A stretch of 6,370 nucleotides of DNA from a virus. Lineage: Duplodnaviria; Heunggongvirae; Uroviricota; Caudoviricetes. The DNA is taken from IMG/VR virus record IMGVR_UViG_2778261687_000002, positions 1-6,370 of that record, one strand, 5' to 3'. Positions 1 through 6,370 of the stretch are shown piece after piece; within the stretch, counting starts at the first letter, position 1; every line of letters begins with the position of its first letter. The notes beneath the pieces were generated by a model, which worked only from the letters and a program-made list of their open reading frames with translations, was not told the origin of the DNA and searched no databases. The translations under genes were made by a program, and so were the position numbers.

Positions 1-77
1 TGTTTTTGTCATGTGAGTCACCTCTGACTGAGAGTTTACTCACTTAGCCGCGTGTCCACTATTGCTGGGTAAGATCA
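1..77 (-). mobile_element. IS3-type insertion sequence, left end only (terminal inverted repeat, leader, first four codons of orfA); the element continues beyond the window start
   Basis: Reverse complement of 1..77 reads TGATCTTACCCAGCAATAGTGGACACGCGGCTAAGTGAGTAAACTCTCAGTCAGAGGTGACTCACATGACAAAAACA, which I recognise from memory as the IS3 left terminus (TG...CA-type end), followed by a GAGGTGA ribosome-binding site and ATG ACA AAA ACA (MTKT, the OrfA/InsE start) at 12..1 on the minus strand. Not verified by search. Confidence 0.75.
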
Positions 78-410
78 TGGATCGTACTTTAGGATATTTG
101 GGAAGTAGAATTGCTGTGAGCCATATGCGTCATACACAGCCATTGAATGACCTTCAACAGTTACAAATTTCGCAATTTGCCCGTTGTATACTGGATACCC
201 TCCAGCATTGATAACGATAGGCTGTGCAACAGGTATGTGCGTTCCATTTTCGTTTTCCAGATAAACCTGAATCTGGTTTTCAGGATTTACCGGGTCCGTG
301 TCAATTTTACCGATATAAATTTTGCCATTGGCTACGGCTTTAAAAGAACGAGCCATAGTGAAGAGTTGCGAAGGCATGCTTACTACAACATTAGCTGTAA
401 TGTCTGTCAT
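75..410 (-). pseudogene. P22-like tailspike, N-terminal head-binding domain only (111 aa), truncated by the IS3 end
   Basis: Translation [42 protein letters not shown]...LKYDP closely matches the P22 gp9 head-binding domain as I recall it. GGAG lies 8 nt upstream of the ATG at 410. The TGA stop at 77..75 is formed by the first three bases of the IS3 terminus. A full tailspike is about 650-700 aa. Confidence 0.85.
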
Positions 411-468
411 TTAATTTGCTCCAGATACAAGGAATCACCGAAGCATGGCTACGGTGAATTTTGGGCAT

Positions 469-491
469 AAAAAAACCCAGCCGAAGCTGGG
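469..491 (-). terminator. Rho-independent terminator (minus strand) upstream of the tailspike start
   Basis: Minus strand reads CCCAGC-TTCG-GCTGGG followed by TTTTTTT: a 6-7 bp GC-rich stem, tetraloop and U-tract. Plus-strand stem is 476..491 with the A-run at 469..475. Confidence 0.6.
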
Positions 492-543
492 TCGTTGCGT
501 TGGTTATCTGTCAGTAGTTATGTACTGGCTGAAGGATTTGTAC

Positions 544-574
544 AAAAAAACCACCTGACGGTGGGTTAATTTTT
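544..574 (-). terminator. Second hairpin terminator, mainly minus-strand, possibly bidirectional
   Basis: Stem CCACC (551..555), loop TGAC, stem GGTGG (560..564). Flanked by AAAAAAA (544..550), which gives a 7-U tract on the minus strand, and by GTTAATTTTT on the plus strand. The stem is short (5 bp). Confidence 0.45.
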
Positions 575-592
575 GCATTTACCTGGGCCATA

Positions 593-621
593 TTGACTAC
601 TTATAAAATGAGATCAATATT
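593..621 (+). promoter_or_regulatory. Candidate sigma70 promoter for the YjzC-like gene
   Basis: TTGACT at 593..598, a 17 nt spacer, then AATATT at 616..621 (4/6 match to TATAAT), about 35 nt upstream of the ATG at 658. Pattern match only. Confidence 0.25.
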
Positions 622-657
622 TAATCGCCCAATAACGGGTGTATGTTGAGGTATATC

Positions 658-837
658 ATGGCGAAAAAACCAGGTGAAAACACAGGAAAAAACGGCGGAA
701 TATACCAAGAAGTTGGCCCACGCGGCGGTAAGAAAGACAATTTTGCCACCGTCAAGGACAACGAAAGGCTTCCACCAACAACAAAGCCAGGTCATGGCTG
801 GGTATTGGATAAGCGAACTCCAGACAGCAAAAAGTAA
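658..837 (+). CDS. YjzC-like small protein (59 aa), accessory gene
   Basis: MAKKPGENTGKNGGIYQEVGPRGGKKDNFATVKDNERLPPTTKPGHGWVLDKRTPDSKK fits the YjzC-like small-protein pattern as I recall it (KPGE..G.Y.EVGPRGG...TV.....LPPT.KPG..W). GAGGT lies 5 nt upstream of the ATG at 658. The ORF-track start at 643 has no ribosome-binding site. A terminator follows directly. Confidence 0.7.
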   Translation: MAKKPGENTGKNGGIYQEVGPRGGKKDNFATVKDNERLPPTTKPGHGWVLDKRTPDSKK

Positions 838-843
838 TAATCA

Positions 844-866
844 AGCCGGTTCACTCCGGCTTTTTG
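844..866 (+). terminator. Rho-independent terminator of the YjzC-like gene
   Basis: AGCCGG-TTCACT-CCGGCT followed by TTTT, starting 7 nt after the TAA stop. It overlaps the last four codons of the convergent minus-strand gene. Confidence 0.55.
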
Positions 867-1216
867 ATATGTCGCTCGCAGAACTCAACAAGCCTGCTCA
901 TTAAGTAGCAGTAAGTCTCGTTGGCTCTTCCTGGTTCAACATCAACACCTACCCTTGAGCAGATATCGAATGCCATGTGAGCGCACTCATGGGCAATAGT
1001 AGATAGTTTGCCATTGAACACGCCTATCACATGCAAAACACCATTCTCGCTACTCATTGTATGAGACGCTCCGTTGGCGTCCGAGTCATGCACGTCAACG
1101 CCAAGTTTTTGATGCAGGCGTTGCCATTCTGGAAAGTCTCTACAAAACACAATTGTACCGCTCTCAAAGAGCGGAACGAGCATCTTTGGTACGTTTCCAA
1201 TGTTAACTTTTTTCAT
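851..1216 (-). CDS. HExxH zinc-metallopeptidase-like protein (121 aa), ImmA/IrrE- or SprT-like by motif only
   Basis: Intact 121-codon ORF containing [15 protein letters not shown], a hydrophobic-xx-HExxH-hydrophobic zincin motif, with downstream acidic residues ([10 protein letters not shown]). No strong ribosome-binding site (AGGA 4 nt before the ATG). Family assignment is from the motif alone. Confidence 0.55.
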
Positions 1217-1246
1217 GGTATCCTGCGCAAAACTAAGGAGGTTGGT

Positions 1247-1741
1247 GTGTCTGATTCTATGAGTTACGCTGTGCTAGTTGCCGCAACTCTATTTATGGGG
1301 ATAGGGTTGCAGATTGCGTGGTTCTTTTTTTCTAGTTTTATTAAACGCAAAAGAATTGAATCAAGGATATCTGAGATTTCTATTGCTATAGGGAAAAATG
1401 CTGAAAATCCAGAGAATGAGGCCTGCGCACTGAATTACCTTAAAGAAAAGTTTTCCCCTGAAAAATTTGAAAATAGAATTACTGATGCTCTTGGATTGGT
1501 AATATCAGTAATTCATATGCCACTAAGTTTGCTGATAACAGTGTGGTACTTCGCCATGATCGCCGGAAGAATATTTGGTTTCATGAATATAGAGCCTGTA
1601 GTTCTTTGGGTTCCAATGATACTGCAACTGTTGTTAAGCGTTGCTATCTTTATTTTTTCTGTTTTTATAAAAATTGTCTTTGGAAGATACCCCGGAGAAG
1701 CTAAGGGATTTAATAAAGAATTCATAAAAACTATAAAATAA
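1247..1741 (+). CDS. AT-rich small inner-membrane protein (about 164 aa, three predicted transmembrane helices), in the sieA-equivalent position
   Basis: Strong ribosome-binding site TAAGGAGG at 1234..1241, 5 nt before an in-frame GTG at 1247 (the ATG at 1259 is an alternative start). Hydrophobic segments [45 protein letters not shown] and [31 protein letters not shown] content is visibly lower (about 35%) than the flanks. The ORF-track N-terminal extension from 1031 lies upstream of the ribosome-binding site and overlaps the HExxH gene. Confidence 0.7.
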
Positions 1742-1763
1742 ATGCCGTCCTTGGCTTACAGTG

Positions 1764-2912
1764 CTACTGCCGGGTCGCTTCGTTAGCTAAGAGCGGGCGC
1801 ACGGCAGTAGCAGCCTGATTTAGCGCTCTTTCATAAGCTGGCGTTCCAGCTTTAGTGTTTGCCAGACGTAAGAGCGCATTCCTTGCTGCTTTGGACTCAT
1901 ACAAACGCATCATTGCACCAAAACCAGCCTCAAGCCCCATTGATACTCCAAGAGTCGCAGTTGCGCCAATCGTCCTTATCCTGTTGGCTTGTGATTGCCC
2001 CGTCTGAGTTACTACATTTGCGGTGTCTGACCTTGCTGTTTGCTGTAGAACTTCATGAAGAGCATCAAGCTCTTTCATGTGCTTTCCAGAAAAAATAGTG
2101 TTGTAAATTTCACCGCCTGACTGAGATTTAAGCTTATTAACTTCAGTGATGAACTTGGCTGGAGAGTCACCGGCCTTTTCCGCTATTTTGCTGACGTAAG
2201 CTGCACGCATAGCATCTTTCCCTTTATCATCCAATGCGCTCCAGATTCGTTTCACGTCAGATGGTTTTCTGCTTAATACAACGGTATTTATAAGTTCAGG
2301 ACTGGCTTCACTGCTTGCCTTGTTGAGCTTGTTAGCAATGTTTTTATTAAGCACCTTATTATAAACGTTTGCATAATCGGAGTTTGCTTTAAGGTATTTT
2401 GCTGCGTCTGATGCACCAAGGTTTTTTGCAACTGCGTTACGAAGATCTTTTGACATTGCATTCTCTACCATATTGGTAGCTGCTTTTGCCTGGTTTGGGA
2501 AGACCATAGCATCTCCCTGAACATTAGATCTAAATGCTGTTCTGTGCTGACGCAAGAGATCAAACGTAACATCCAAATCAGTTGCAGGGTTTGCTAATTC
2601 TTCGCGTAGGTTACGCAAGGATGTAAGCAGACTTTGATTGGCAGACGTCCCAAGCCGTTCCTGTCTTGCGATCGCTGTATTCAGAGCATTCATGGTATTT
2701 GTGGTATCAACTGCGGCATTACCCATTTTATTGGTGACGTCATTGATAACAGCGCCAGCGGCATCCTTCCGCCCCCTTAACGTGGTGGTCAGAGATTTCA
2801 CCACATCATCAGGGTTGTACTCACCAAAACGGTCAAAATAATTGCTTACCAGCTTACTACGCGTTGCATATTGCTCCGCTCGCTTTGAGCCTGTCCCGAG
2901 CAAAGCCCCCTC
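1764..2912 (-). CDS. Phage virion/ejection-protein-like C-terminal region (Ala/Asn/Lys-rich; possibly P22 gp16-like by position), lacking its own start and fused in frame to the ninG fragment
   Basis: Long open frame with low-complexity, helical composition typical of phage injection or tail-associated proteins. No ATG with a ribosome-binding site; the ORF-track start at 2903 is a TTG inside a continuous frame that stays open up to 3143. The gp16-like assignment rests on synteny (next to the sieA-like gene and tailspike), not on recalled sequence identity. Confidence 0.45.
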
Positions 2913-3107
2913 GGCATCCCACTGAGCAGACGTGAGCGTTCCGCACGAGATACATGGTAAGTCGCGGTCTCTTTCTCTGATGAAGGCGTTTACGGCTTGT
3001 TGGGCTTGTTTAATCCAGTAACTGCGGGGCTTTAAGGCGAGTTTTCGAATCTTAAGTTTATCTTTCTGTTTCTGCTCCTCTCGTCGCCGTTTCTTCTCTG
3101 CTGCTTT
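2913..3107 (-). pseudogene. ninG: ninG (Rap-like) internal fragment, in frame with the downstream virion-protein-like ORF
   Basis: The same minus-strand frame translates as [65 protein letters not shown], matching lambda NinG as I recall it. Homology stops at ...AQWDA (lambda continues GHYR...) and there is a TGA just upstream at 3146..3144. Both N- and C-terminal parts of NinG are missing. Confidence 0.6.
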
Positions 3108-3421
3108 TCCCGATAGAGCATGATGATTGAGTCTGCGTCCTGCTCAATGCTTCCTGAATCACGCAAATCTGCGTTTGTCGGGCGTTTGTTTGGTCGCTTC
3201 TCAACATCGCGCGAAAGCTGACTCAGGGAGATAACAGGCGTTTTCAGGTCTTTCGCCATCGCCTTCAGGCTTCCTGAGATGTGAGCAATTGCGAGGTCGT
3301 TGCGGTCTGCTTTCGGCTTCTCAATCAGGCCAAGATAATCCGCCATGATGAGTGACAGGTTTGGATTTTCCTGTTTGTGCCGTTCTGCGATTGAGCGTAT
3401 TTCTTCGACCGATACCCAATG
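3032..3421 (-). pseudogene. DnaB-family replicative helicase, C-terminal fragment (P22 gene 12 / lambda P-region type)
   Basis: Minus-strand frame reads ...[33 protein letters not shown]...[63 protein letters not shown], which is the DnaB C-terminal signature region. The N-terminal roughly 300 aa (Walker motifs) are absent. After LYRE the frame diverges into the ninG sequence read out of frame ([24 protein letters not shown], stop). The ORF-track start at 3346 is an internal Met. Confidence 0.7.
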
Positions 3422-3571
3422 TCCGATAGCTCCCTGTGTGCATCCAACTGCCTTAAGCCTGAAGAAATGTTTCCTGTAATGGAAGATGGGAAATATGTCG
3501 ATAAATGGGCAATACGAACGACGGCAATGATTGCCAGAGAACTTGGTAAACAGAATAACAAGGCTGCCTGA
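3419..3571 (+). CDS. Small plus-strand ORF (50 aa from the ATG at 3419; 34 aa from the ATG at 3467), possibly the 3' remnant of a truncated gene
   Basis: [50 protein letters not shown]. No convincing ribosome-binding site. The TGA stop (3569..3571) sits in the loop of the hairpin terminator that follows. Below the ORF-track size cut-off. Confidence 0.25.
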
Positions 3572-3589
3572 TGGTGGCCTTTATTTTTT
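3562..3589 (+). terminator. Candidate rho-independent terminator (plus strand)
   Basis: GGCTGCC-TGAT-GGTGGCC (7 bp stem with two G:U pairs) followed by TTTATTTTTT. Confidence 0.4.
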
Positions 3590-3630
3590 GGCCGTAAATA
3601 ATTTCATGCTTATTACAATCAAGGGGATAT

Positions 3631-3996
3631 ATGGAAGAACAAGCAAACAAGATTCTCGTAGAACTACTGCAAAAAGCCAGTAATGGAATAGACGCGGCTG
3701 TTTCATTTAGCCAGGCACAGATTCCTGATGTCATCCATCAGCTTTTGATGTGGCACGCCGTATCATCAGCTGGAATTCAGGCTATCTGTGTATTGGTGAT
3801 TATAGCGTGTGTTTATCTGATGATTTTTGCATGGAATAAAGGAGATGATGCGGATGTTGTTCTTTTATCGCTACTTGTAACATCAGGAATAGCGATTACT
3901 TCTATTGTTGTTTTCTTCAATTATTTCGACTGGCTGAAAATCTGGCTTGCTCCAAAACTTTACCTTATCGAATATGCAGCATCATTGGTTAAGTAA
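3631..3996 (+). CDS. Small membrane protein (121 aa, two predicted transmembrane helices), unknown function; superinfection-exclusion or holin-like candidate
   Basis: Ribosome-binding site AGGGG 4 nt before the ATG. Soluble N-terminal roughly 45 aa, then hydrophobic helices GIQAICVLVIIACVYLMIFAW and VVLLSLLVTSGIAITSIVVFFNYF. Followed by a clean terminator. Moderately AT-rich. Confidence 0.65.
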   Translation: MEEQANKILVELLQKASNGIDAAVSFSQAQIPDVIHQLLMWHAVSSAGIQAICVLVIIACVYLMIFAWNKGDDADVVLLSLLVTSGIAITSIVVFFNYFDWLKIWLAPKLYLIEYAASLVK

Positions 3997-4000
3997 TTTC

Positions 4001-4026
4001 AGGCCGCATAGTCGGCCTTCATTTTT
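4001..4026 (+). terminator. Rho-independent terminator of the 121-aa membrane protein gene
   Basis: AGGCCG-CATAGT-CGGCCT (6 bp stem) followed by TCATTTTT, starting 5 nt after the TAA stop. Confidence 0.6.
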
Positions 4027-4089
4027 GGCATAAACAACAGAATAAACACTGCACTGTGTATTCATTCCAACGAGTGAATATCTGAGGTT

Positions 4090-4293
4090 TTGAAACGCAC
4101 TGGCTATAGCAAGGCGTGGGTATATGCTCTGATGAGCCGAGGACAATTCCCTCAATCAGTCAAGATTGGTGCTCGCGCAATAGCTTTTATTGAAAGCGAG
4201 ATCGATGACTGGATCGATCAACGTATAGCCGAATCGCGTAGTAACAAAGAACAGAAACAAACCGGATACAAACAATACGTTATTAGGTATTAA
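4090..4293 (+). CDS. alpA: AlpA/Vis-family winged-helix DNA-binding protein (prophage regulatory protein / excisionase-like), apparently N-terminally shortened
   Basis: (ISEV)LKRTGYSKAWVYALMSRGQFPQSVKIGARAIAFIESEIDDWI matches the AlpA/P4 Vis pattern (..EV...TGLSRSTIY.L...G.FP.PVK.G.R.V.W...E...W). The only in-frame start after the TGA at 4075..4077 is the TTG at 4090; the usual leading residues of the family are missing. Confidence 0.6.
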   Translation: MKRTGYSKAWVYALMSRGQFPQSVKIGARAIAFIESEIDDWIDQRIAESRSNKEQKQTGYKQYVIRY

Positions 4294-4295
4294 GA

Positions 4296-4487
4296 ATGCA
4301 GTTGACCCCCACCAATCAAAAGCTGAACGTAACCCATGTTGATTTTGAGACCTTCGCGGAACTGATTAGATCAGATCCACAAAAGGTAAGCACCAGCACC
4401 TGGGTTTATGATGTGAAATCCACCAACGGTGGAAAAGCTATCGGCATTGTCTCTGGCGATGATTACTTAGTAATCGATCTGATTTAA
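4296..4487 (+). CDS. Hypothetical small protein (63 aa), translationally coupled to the alpA-like gene
   Basis: AGGT ribosome-binding site 7 nt before the ATG, which is 2 nt after the alpA-like stop. No recognisable motif. Confidence 0.5.
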   Translation: MQLTPTNQKLNVTHVDFETFAELIRSDPQKVSTSTWVYDVKSTNGGKAIGIVSGDDYLVIDLI

Positions 4488-4513
4488 TCACACAAAAATT
4501 GTAGAGTGATTTG

Positions 4514-4532
4514 GGAAGACAGGAAGTCTTCC
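4514..4532. promoter_or_regulatory. Perfect 7 bp inverted repeat with 5 nt spacer (GGAAGAC-AGGAA-GTCTTCC); candidate operator or weak terminator
   Basis: Seen directly in the intergenic region between the 63-aa ORF and the HTH gene, about 40 bp upstream of the ATG at 4570. No clean U-tract follows. Confidence 0.35.
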
Positions 4533-4569
4533 TCCGTATTGCATTTTGGTACAACAGTAAGGGAATAAA

Positions 4570-4764
4570 ATGATTAATTATCTGACCGCTAAAGACGCAG
4601 CAGAATATCTTGGTGTCTGTCTATCACGCTTCTATCAGTTAAAGCGATATATCCCCAGCTTTCCCCCCTATGTAAATCAGACCATCAATGGACGCAAGCG
4701 CAGAGTGTGGCTTGCCTCCAGCCTTGATCAATTTGCCGACAGATTTCTGGGGGGACGAAAATGA
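4570..4764 (+). CDS. Excisionase/AlpA-type helix-turn-helix (HTH_17-like) DNA-binding protein, 64 aa
   Basis: Ribosome-binding site AAGGGA 5 nt before the ATG. LTAKDAAEYLGVCLSRFYQLKR...GRKRRVWLASSLDQFADRF follows the Xis/AlpA winged-helix pattern (LT.keaAeyLGvs..t.Y.l......P.....G.r.rW....ld.w). Confidence 0.65.
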   Translation: MINYLTAKDAAEYLGVCLSRFYQLKRYIPSFPPYVNQTINGRKRRVWLASSLDQFADRFLGGRK

Positions 4765-5147
4765 GCACTCTTACACGTACTCAGGTCGCCGCAAATATAC
4801 GCGATAGCCTACTAAGTGGCAGGAAGCTTACCCCAAAGGAGTTTGATGACATATTAAGGAAAGCAGGAAATCACGAACGTAGTCGCGTTTTAACGCTGTT
4901 ACGCAACGATTGGGGAATTCCTGTTGAACAGTGTAAAACAGGGGCGTATCACGTCACAGAACGCAACTTAGAAGCATACCACAGCGATAAAGACGAAACA
5001 TTGAAGCTCTGGAGGACGAACGCCAGATATGTAAAGACATTGCGTAAGGTAAACATAACGTTGTCGTTGTTGCGTGGGCTGGTGGGCAAAGTGCCTGAAG
5101 ACACGCTTAGAACTATTTACAAGGGTATTGAAACCAAATACCTGTGA
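4761..5147 (+). CDS. Hypothetical protein (128 aa), translationally coupled (ATGA overlap) to the upstream HTH gene
   Basis: Start ATG overlaps the upstream stop (ATGA at 4761..4764). GGGGGA ribosome-binding site 5 nt upstream. No motif recognised. Confidence 0.6.
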   Translation: MSTLTRTQVAANIRDSLLSGRKLTPKEFDDILRKAGNHERSRVLTLLRNDWGIPVEQCKTGAYHVTERNLEAYHSDKDETLKLWRTNARYVKTLRKVNITLSLLRGLVGKVPEDTLRTIYKGIETKYL

Positions 5148-5159
5148 TTGACAAAGTAG

Positions 5160-5186
5160 AAAGCCGACTTTGCGAGAGTCGGCTTT
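5160..5186 (+). terminator. Strong hairpin (10 bp stem AAAGCCGACT / AGTCGGCTTT, 7 nt loop) just after the 128-aa ORF; candidate terminator, possibly bidirectional
   Basis: Perfect 10 bp stem seen directly. The U-tract is only 3 nt, contributed by the stem arm. A TTGACA hexamer at 5148..5153 immediately precedes it. Confidence 0.45.
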
Positions 5187-5215
5187 GAATCAATTGAAAT
5201 ATATGAATTTTACAC

Positions 5216-6268
5216 ATGGAATTATACGATAAAGACGCGAGTCTATCCACAAAATCACAAGCCGTAATCAATCGCATCAATGGTCGAACCTTAGCTTATG
5301 TGAAATCAGTTAAGTACAAACGTAATGAATTAAAGGCGGAGAATAAACGACAATCATCAAAGGCTAACCACTGCATACCACCAGCCTGGACAAAGAGGAA
5401 ATGGCGTACAATGAGGCGAGCTTTGTTTACTCTGGATGTCGAATCAACTAGTGGTATCCCCTACTCCTTTACCTTCAGACCCGTTAAGGGAACAACGCCA
5501 GAGAAATTCAACAAAGCGTTAAAGGCACTTACCAGATGGTTGACTTCGAAAGGCAATCAGTGGGTTTACGTCATGGAGTGGGCTCGACACCAGTCAGAGC
5601 CGCATGTACACGCAATAATCATGGTGAACGAAAGAAGCATTAATGGGCAAGCTGGCAAAATTGTCAGCAAATGGGTAACACTGGCAAACAATGCAATCCC
5701 ATCAAATGTTCCTCCTCAGTGGGATCTAGATTTGAAAGGTCAGCAATATTCAGAGCCTACAAAGTGTATAGGTAAACAGATTGATTACATGGCAAAGCCC
5801 GAAACTAAGTTAAATGACTTTAATAGAGAGGCGAGCAAGAGCCTATATGATTGGTCAGATGCCACCGTTTGGGGTTATTCGAATGGCTGGGCGCGGCATG
5901 AGATAAAAAAAGAAACACTTTCTATCACTGGCTTTCATGCTGTAAGACGCATACTAAAAGCCATTCAGGCATCAAGGAAAGACAACTACAAAGTTAAGCG
6001 ACAGATACAGCGTACATTGAAACGACAAGACATAAATCGCTCACCAATCACCCCATTCCAAGCACCGTTAATTAGCAAACACGATTGGGATTTATCAGTG
6101 ATAGCGGTCACCAAAGAGGCAGAGACAGAGCGCAGGGAGTTACTATCCTCACAGATAATAAACTCGAACAAAGTACAAACCTACCCGCTGTTAAGGATGT
6201 TAAGAAAAGCACGAGTGAGAGCATCAAGAGCCAGAAGAGAAAGCGGAGGTTATGACCTTTACTACTAG
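5216..6268 (+). CDS. Putative HUH-type rolling-circle replication initiator (Rep), 350 aa; compare inovirus gene II-like or CP4-57 YfjI-like proteins found next to alpA
   Basis: Long ORF with motif I-like FTLD (aa 71-74), HUH motif EPHVHAIIMV (aa 128-137) and a YxxK tyrosine motif QIDYMAKPETK (aa 188-198), each about 59 aa apart, with a basic C-terminal tail. No ribosome-binding site before the ATG at 5216, so the start is uncertain. Function inferred from motifs only. Confidence 0.5.
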   Translation: MELYDKDASLSTKSQAVINRINGRTLAYVKSVKYKRNELKAENKRQSSKANHCIPPAWTKRKWRTMRRALFTLDVESTSGIPYSFTFRPVKGTTPEKFNKALKALTRWLTSKGNQWVYVMEWARHQSEPHVHAIIMVNERSINGQAGKIVSKWVTLANNAIPSNVPPQWDLDLKGQQYSEPTKCIGKQIDYMAKPETKLNDFNREASKSLYDWSDATVWGYSNGWARHEIKKETLSITGFHAVRRILKAIQASRKDNYKVKRQIQRTLKRQDINRSPITPFQAPLISKHDWDLSVIAVTKEAETERRELLSSQIINSNKVQTYPLLRMLRKARVRASRARRESGGYDLYY

Positions 6269-6370
6269 TAGTGACAGATCGTGACAAGGCTGTGGCTTTG
6301 TTGAATAAATCAGATTTCGGGTAAGTCTCCCCCGTAGCGGGTTGTGTTTTCAGGCAATACGCACGCTTTC

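Follow-up and report, generated by a model that had tools for sequence, protein, structure and literature searches.

In a window of 6370 bp we identified a tailspike gene of the P22 type that ends, directly after its head-binding domain, at the terminus of an IS3 element, and this arrangement is very probably the result of an IS3 transposition into the tailspike gene of a decayed Escherichia coli prophage, leaving a silent fragment behind. The window, i.e., the whole stretch of DNA analysed here, is the complete draft contig NLGV01000072.1 in reversed orientation, belonging to the E. coli assembly GCA_002226155.1. According to the scenario we favour, IS3 would have transposed into the tailspike gene of an HK620/Sf6-type P22-like prophage between codon 111 (CCA) and codon 112, and its left end would have supplied an immediate TGA, giving rise to a 111-residue ORF for the head-binding domain on the near side. 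The structural, lysis, and late-regulatory genes of the prophage would have been deleted, with IS3 as one of several inactivating lesions, and the tailspike fragment would be a non-functional, probably untranscribed pseudogene.

Matches to Pfam, PDB, and PHROG entries identified the N-terminal fragment of the tailspike gene (gene 9 homologue), which comprises 111 codons on the minus strand (78..410; 410..75 including the TGA). A ribosome-binding site, GGAG (419..422, minus strand), could be read directly 8 nt upstream of the ATG. On the minus strand the junction reads ...CTA AAG TAC GAT CCA / TGA TCT TAC CCA GCA ATA GTG GAC.... Comparison with the Pfam family Head_binding (PF09008) resulted in a match over positions 1-111 of 113 (E=1.7e-65; 218.8 bits against a cut-off of 24), the 111 residues aligned without gaps with residues 1-111 of the PDB chains of Sf6 gp14 and P22 gp9, and the crystallised P22 head-binding domain 1LKT covers residues 6-109 of the ORF. 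With this full-length PF09008 match the 111-codon ORF is a complete P22-type head-binding domain. It is not a complete P22-like tailspike, as the TGA of IS3 ends the reading frame behind residue 111, and no receptor-binding sequence (linker, beta-helix) was found in the window. Our reading of the ORF and its upstream region agreed with the original prediction, made from the sequence of the window, which had let the ORF end after ...LKYDP at 111 aa and had given it a ribosome-binding site of its own. Plus-strand ORFs overlapping positions 62..470 were also considered and rejected, since they lie opposite a domain that is well supported and are themselves backed by no evidence.

At the nucleotide level, the closest head-binding allele was that of phage HK620, with about 93% identity in the gene 9 region, and closed E. 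coli genomes reached at most 90% identity to the allele. Compared to the island of strain H1827/12, identity falls from 99.3% (398..1250) to 79% (73..410) at the start codon of the tailspike gene (window 398-410). Judging from the aligned sequences, the whole tailspike gene, and not the receptor-binding part alone, appears to have been exchanged between the window lineage and the H1827/12 lineage.

The first 77 nt of the window (1..77, minus strand) represent the left end of IS3, nt 1-77 of a 1258-bp element. After reverse complementation, all 77 nt were identical to the start of annotated 1258-bp copies in closed E. coli genomes (100% identity to the copies in loci L007, L008, and L009), and BLAST brought up thousands of E. 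coli records in which these nucleotides match IS3 at 99% or more. The left terminal inverted repeat, which begins with TGATC... and lies at roughly 77..39 on the minus strand, and the 77/77 identity of the left end assign the sequence to IS3. At positions 1..12 (minus strand) the first four codons of the transposase gene orfA, ATG ACA AAA ACA (M-T-K-T), could be read directly, orfA and the tailspike fragment pointing the same way; window position 12 is aligned with locus position 8012, where the annotated transposase CDS ends in all three loci.

Elements of the IS3 family transpose by a copy-out/paste-in mechanism and generate a 3-bp duplication. Duplications of this kind (CTT/CTT in G4/9 and CAG/CAG in 2022E04-002; L008 and L009) fix the ends of IS3 independently of the window, and therefore TGATC... 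is the true terminus of the element. The TGA of the truncated tailspike ORF (75..77, minus strand) corresponds to IS3 nt 1-3. Thus, the original prediction was confirmed in taking positions 1..77 for the terminus of IS3 (77/77 nt identical to annotated copies) and in having the stop codon supplied by the first three bases of the element (junction sequence and fixed terminus). Based on the duplications in L008 and L009, the 3-bp target site is predicted to be CCA, the codon for P111 (78..80, minus strand; TGG on the plus strand), and a second CCA is predicted at the other end of the element in the case of a simple insertion. The right end of IS3 reads ...CATATTACGTGGGTAGGATCA, also given as ...GGCCTGTGTCCATATTACGTGGGTAGGATCA. 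The full structure (1258 bp, orfA and orfB with a programmed -1 frameshift) is visible in the comparison genomes only; the element at the tailspike is probably full-length as well, and with 77 nt in view a truncated IS3 or a rearranged junction has to be kept in mind.

Four contigs, three from Logan and one from NCBI, cross the same junction, and since they derive from different samples and pipelines, the IS3/tailspike junction is real and not an artefact of assembly. By an exact-protein look-up of the 111-aa ORF the allele was located on 5-6 contigs only; at NCBI, an identical protein is listed under E. coli. These contigs end 0-77 nt into IS3, those from Logan at 30 nt and that of GCA_002226155.1 at 77 nt, and ends at 30 or 77 nt are the expected signature of an assembler meeting a multi-copy repeat. 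Two long contigs are 100% identical to the window across 6.2 kb; the junction is therefore one event inherited in a small clonal group. A fifth contig, DAPJXU010000033.1 from NCBI (L003), stops at window position 79, just before the IS3 junction, where either assembler trimming or heterogeneity of the junction may be responsible.

The prophage around the tailspike fragment is a heavily deleted, dead remnant. Homology to intact P22-like prophages covers window positions 79..2919 only; identity to two of these prophages (L010 and L011) amounts to 96-98% and ends at 2919. Upstream of the tailspike start, this remnant (528..2919, delimited by homology to L010/L011) carries an hkcD-like ORF (658..837, plus strand) and an hkcC-like ORF (851..1216, minus strand), both assigned by Pfam labels and homology, followed by sieA (1247..1741, plus strand; 164 of 164 PHROG profile positions, E=9e-109) and a 5'-truncated gene 16 for the DNA-transfer protein (1764..2903, minus strand). 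The latter encodes 379 aa matching positions 267-663 of 668 of PHROG 770, so that about 266 N-terminal residues of gp16 are missing. Pfam and PHROG searches revealed further prophage debris at 3032..3571, namely a fragment of a DnaB-like helicase of 104 aa (3032..3346, minus strand; Pfam DnaB_C positions 135-222/255 and PHROG 19 positions 462-545/621) and a ral ORF without the first third of its family profile (3419..3571, plus strand; ral profile positions 24-66/66). Sequences for the portal, coat, tail hub, lysis, the late regulator, and gene 23 were not found in the window. Thus, the window does not hold an intact P22-like (Lederbergvirus-type) prophage; a gene 9 fragment, hkcD, hkcC, sieA, fragments of gene 16 and of the helicase gene, and ral are what remains of it.

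Within 1.2 kb, deletion or recombination has joined the DNA at no fewer than three points, between the gene 16 and helicase fragments, between the helicase fragment and ral, and between ral with a membrane ORF and an adjoining AlpA element; the arrangement at 2900-4100 was found in one piece in no closed E. coli genome. The full-length gene for a SieA-like superinfection-exclusion protein survives intact in the remnant, and sieA is plausibly the one prophage gene here that is still of benefit to the host.

The AlpA element (4079..6293) is unrelated to the prophage and recurs beside argW in many E. coli genomes, where its conservation is 96-99%. It encodes an AlpA-like regulator (4090..4293) and a rolling-circle-type replication protein of 350 aa (5216..6268; weak Pfam match to REP_ORF2-G2P, PHROG 30534), and additionally carries a small HTH gene and ORFs without an assigned function, giving it a satellite-like appearance. 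In strain G47-1, the integrase of this AlpA/Rep element lies directly beside argW, and the element bears an IS3 insertion of its own with non-matching flanks. Longer contigs of the same lineage run into a recombinase gene that adjoins dsdC in two closed genomes. Based on this synteny, the island is most likely located in the argW-dsdC interval, and intS and argW are predicted to lie left of the window. Contig L002, from the same lineage, extends past window position 6370 and harbours a type III-A retron at its positions 913-3456 (PRTase_III-A, E=2.5e-83; RT_III-A, E=7.8e-152), flanked by the AlpA/Rep element's Rep gene on one side and the recombinase gene next to dsdC on the other. This spot holds GapS6a/b in G47-1 and an IS4 together with an HNH endonuclease in H1827/12, and it looks like a variable slot for defence cargo.

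As to the far side of the IS3, two arrangements were compared. After a simple insertion, a full 1258-bp IS3, the duplicated CCA, the rest of the tailspike gene with its linker and beta-helix receptor-binding part, intS, and argW would lie intact to the left of the window. We consider this somewhat better than an even bet, since the two IS3-interrupted tailspikes in closed genomes, those of G4/9 and 2022E04-002, are simple insertions with 3-bp duplications in which the downstream parts of the gene are kept; in related closed genomes, moreover, the 3' end of the tailspike gene adjoins intS and argW. No contig with the allele reaches that far, each ending in or just before the IS3, and the junction was absent from all 5,426 closed E. 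coli genomes (BLAST of window 1..420). Left and predicted right junctions, searched as exact and degenerate patterns, had no match in the genome, metagenome, and viral contig collections either.

The other arrangement, a deletion or rearrangement associated with IS3, or recombination between two IS3 copies, would have removed the receptor-binding part and possibly its neighbours, so that IS3 would now be joined to unrelated DNA. That the remnant already contains at least three deletion joints, near 2919, 3350-3420, and 4079, speaks in its favour. The same holds for the IS3 in the same island of G47-1 (L007), which is flanked by TAC on one side and CAC on the other; of the three IS3 copies examined in related islands, this one lacks a matching duplication, which indicates that IS3-associated rearrangement does occur in this region. 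Direct evidence for a deletion at the tailspike was not found, and the two comparable tailspike cases, both simple insertions, point the other way, making a deletion possible though the less probable course. By analogy with these cases, in which the remainder of the gene is preserved, a simple insertion into a once-intact gene appears more likely.

Eight tailspike N-terminal sequences were aligned, including five from intact genes with different types of receptor-binding part, and no column after P111 was invariant; each intact gene goes on with DQ(L/F)R, and divergence sets in at about residue 117. Residues 1-111 of the ORF also aligned to positions 1-111 of more than 10 distinct tailspike PHROG families with lengths of 343-895 aa, and the head-binding module is therefore common to many otherwise unrelated tailspikes. 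Published limits are close to this position, with residues 1-115 given for the conserved tailspike domain (PMC2629481) and residues 107-123 for the flexible link to the spike body of Sf6 (PMC9728967). Thus, IS3 lies inside the junction zone, 4-6 codons before similarity between the families ends, and the proposed position of the IS exactly at the boundary of the head-binding and receptor-binding domains proved accurate to within a few codons. The annotated "boundary sequence" of CUS-3 was considered as the domain junction and discarded, being the intergenic region upstream of the tailspike gene.

A random insertion into a gene of 2-3 kb would come as close to the module junction as a few codons in less than about 1% of cases. 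IS911, a member of the IS3 family, can insert beside sequences resembling its own ends, and IS3 might by the same token have been directed to this site if the native sequence after ...YDP resembled its left end. Tailspikes of the CUS-3 type indeed read TGATCAGTTACGGCAGCAAT right after GATCC, at an edit distance of 4 from the IS3 17-mer TGATCTTACCCAGCAAT, a match of a quality that occurs about once per 10 kb of background. Because of this resemblance, some megablast matches extend to window position 61. The CUS-3-type sequence served here as a proxy for the progenitor of the window allele. In local-alignment scores against random sites, only this proxy fell into the 5% tail, whereas four other proxies were average, as were the two verified IS3 targets in tailspikes. 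Strain 2022E04-002 has kept an intact end-like site, with its IS3 located 167 bp further downstream, and no second insertion at the codon hit in the window occurred in the 5,426 closed E. coli genomes. On the basis of fuzzy matching and these alignment scores we rejected an IS-end-like target, and directed insertion seems very unlikely. A target preference for the junction could not be demonstrated in the tests of look-alike sites; the cut at the module junction is most simply a chance event, a coincidence noticed after the fact.

Most likely, the fragment is a pseudogene and silent. Terminator scanning revealed two strong intrinsic terminators in the stretch that separates the tailspike ATG from the upstream gene, at 493..474 (474..493, minus strand), which maps to tANT of the HK620 annotation, and at 564..551 (551..564, bidirectional), which corresponds to HK620 tMNT; a third terminator is located on the coding strand at 862..843 (minus). 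A consensus scan of 411..900 found no sigma-70-like promoter site on the tailspike strand. Transcription of gene 9 in P22-like phages is late and relies on antitermination, and neither the window nor the 10 kb that follow it downstream contain the region with the late promoter and antiterminator. With terminators upstream, no promoter-like site, and the late antitermination machinery absent, the ORF is likely to be silent.

A database search returned many head-binding proteins of 109-195 aa, and entries of 109-112 aa were inspected as a putative stand-alone class, which was rejected. One of them (P0097) is a partial sequence at a contig end, and another (P0101; Logan contig L016, 5275-5283) is a nonsense mutant in which an in-frame TAG replaces the conserved CAG at codon 113 (YDPD*); past the TAG, the beta-helix part of L016 continues in the same frame and was called as a separate gene. 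A second head-binding-only copy made by IS3 was not detected among the 109-112-aa entries examined, and we see no evidence among the entries examined for a conserved class of free head-binding proteins.

It is highly improbable that the 111-aa head-binding protein functions on its own, as a decoy that fills the tailspike sites of superinfecting P22-like phages or as an adaptor: though a whole folded domain is encoded by an intact ORF with a good ribosome-binding site, this is opposed by the terminators upstream, the promoter that was not found, and the absent late promoter/antiterminator region; by the presence of the allele on few contigs, with two of them matching the window at 100% identity along 6.2 kb, a pattern that gives no sign of selection or recurrence; by the nature of the other short head-binding proteins examined as contig-end partials or a nonsense mutant; and by PDB constructs of residues 1-110, which were fused to a trimerising zipper and in our own reading hint that the bare domain forms no stable trimer. 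We give as little credence to an expression of the ORF made by IS3, e.g., through read-through during superinfection, that would yield a dominant-negative decoy blocking the attachment of tailspikes to P22-like phages; if this were true, a prophage fragment created by an IS would act as a superinfection defence beside sieA, with a type III-A retron in the neighbouring slot in this lineage.

Altogether, a silent fragment left by IS3 is a case of ordinary prophage decay through an ordinary IS3 transposition, with the loss of an already useless gene as its consequence. Because the surrounding prophage is a gutted remnant, little biological interest is left in the insertion itself. It cleanly illustrates how the tailspike gene of a prophage becomes a pseudogene through an insertion sequence, as part of the routine turnover of E. 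coli genomes. Most short "head-binding domain" proteins in databases are artefacts of truncation or of contig ends and do not form a distinct gene class. Since draft assemblies break at such junctions, prediction of phage host range or serotype from the tailspikes in drafts will miss these alleles.

Compared to IS3 itself (IS3 family; 1258 bp, E. coli), the window shares the terminal 77 nt, the inverted repeat, and the start of orfA, but shows only this end of the element and neither the orfAB frameshift region nor the right end. The nearest counterparts are G4/9 (NZ_CP060073.1) and 2022E04-002 (NZ_CM132301.1), where an IS3 likewise resides in the same orientation in the P22-like tailspike gene of a prophage. 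While the window has its IS3 right after residue 111, that of 2022E04-002 interrupts a CUS-3-like endosialidase tailspike after residue 166, and that of G4/9 lies about 110 codons past the end of the domain. Both strains carry a full 1258-bp IS3 with duplications and have kept the beta-helix or endosialidase part, whereas 77 nt of IS3 are seen in the window.

With regard to complete phages, the head-binding domains of HK620 (gene 9), Sf6 (gp14), and P22 (gp9) are homologous to the ORF over residues 1-111. Phage HK620 shows about 93% DNA identity to the window from the start of the tailspike gene through hkcD and hkcC and has the same upstream terminators. Unlike the tailspikes of HK620, Sf6, and P22, that of the window is without a linker, beta-helix, or catalytic part and does not belong to a complete phage. 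Cryptic P22-like or lambdoid remnants at argW are related through their surroundings, e.g., the island of H1827/12, whose flanks are 97.6-99.3% identical to the window and which shares the AlpA/rolling-circle Rep element and the neighbouring recombinase gene with the window lineage. Its tailspike gene, however, is intact and free of IS3; it encodes 861 aa and has another head-binding allele, at 79% nucleotide identity.
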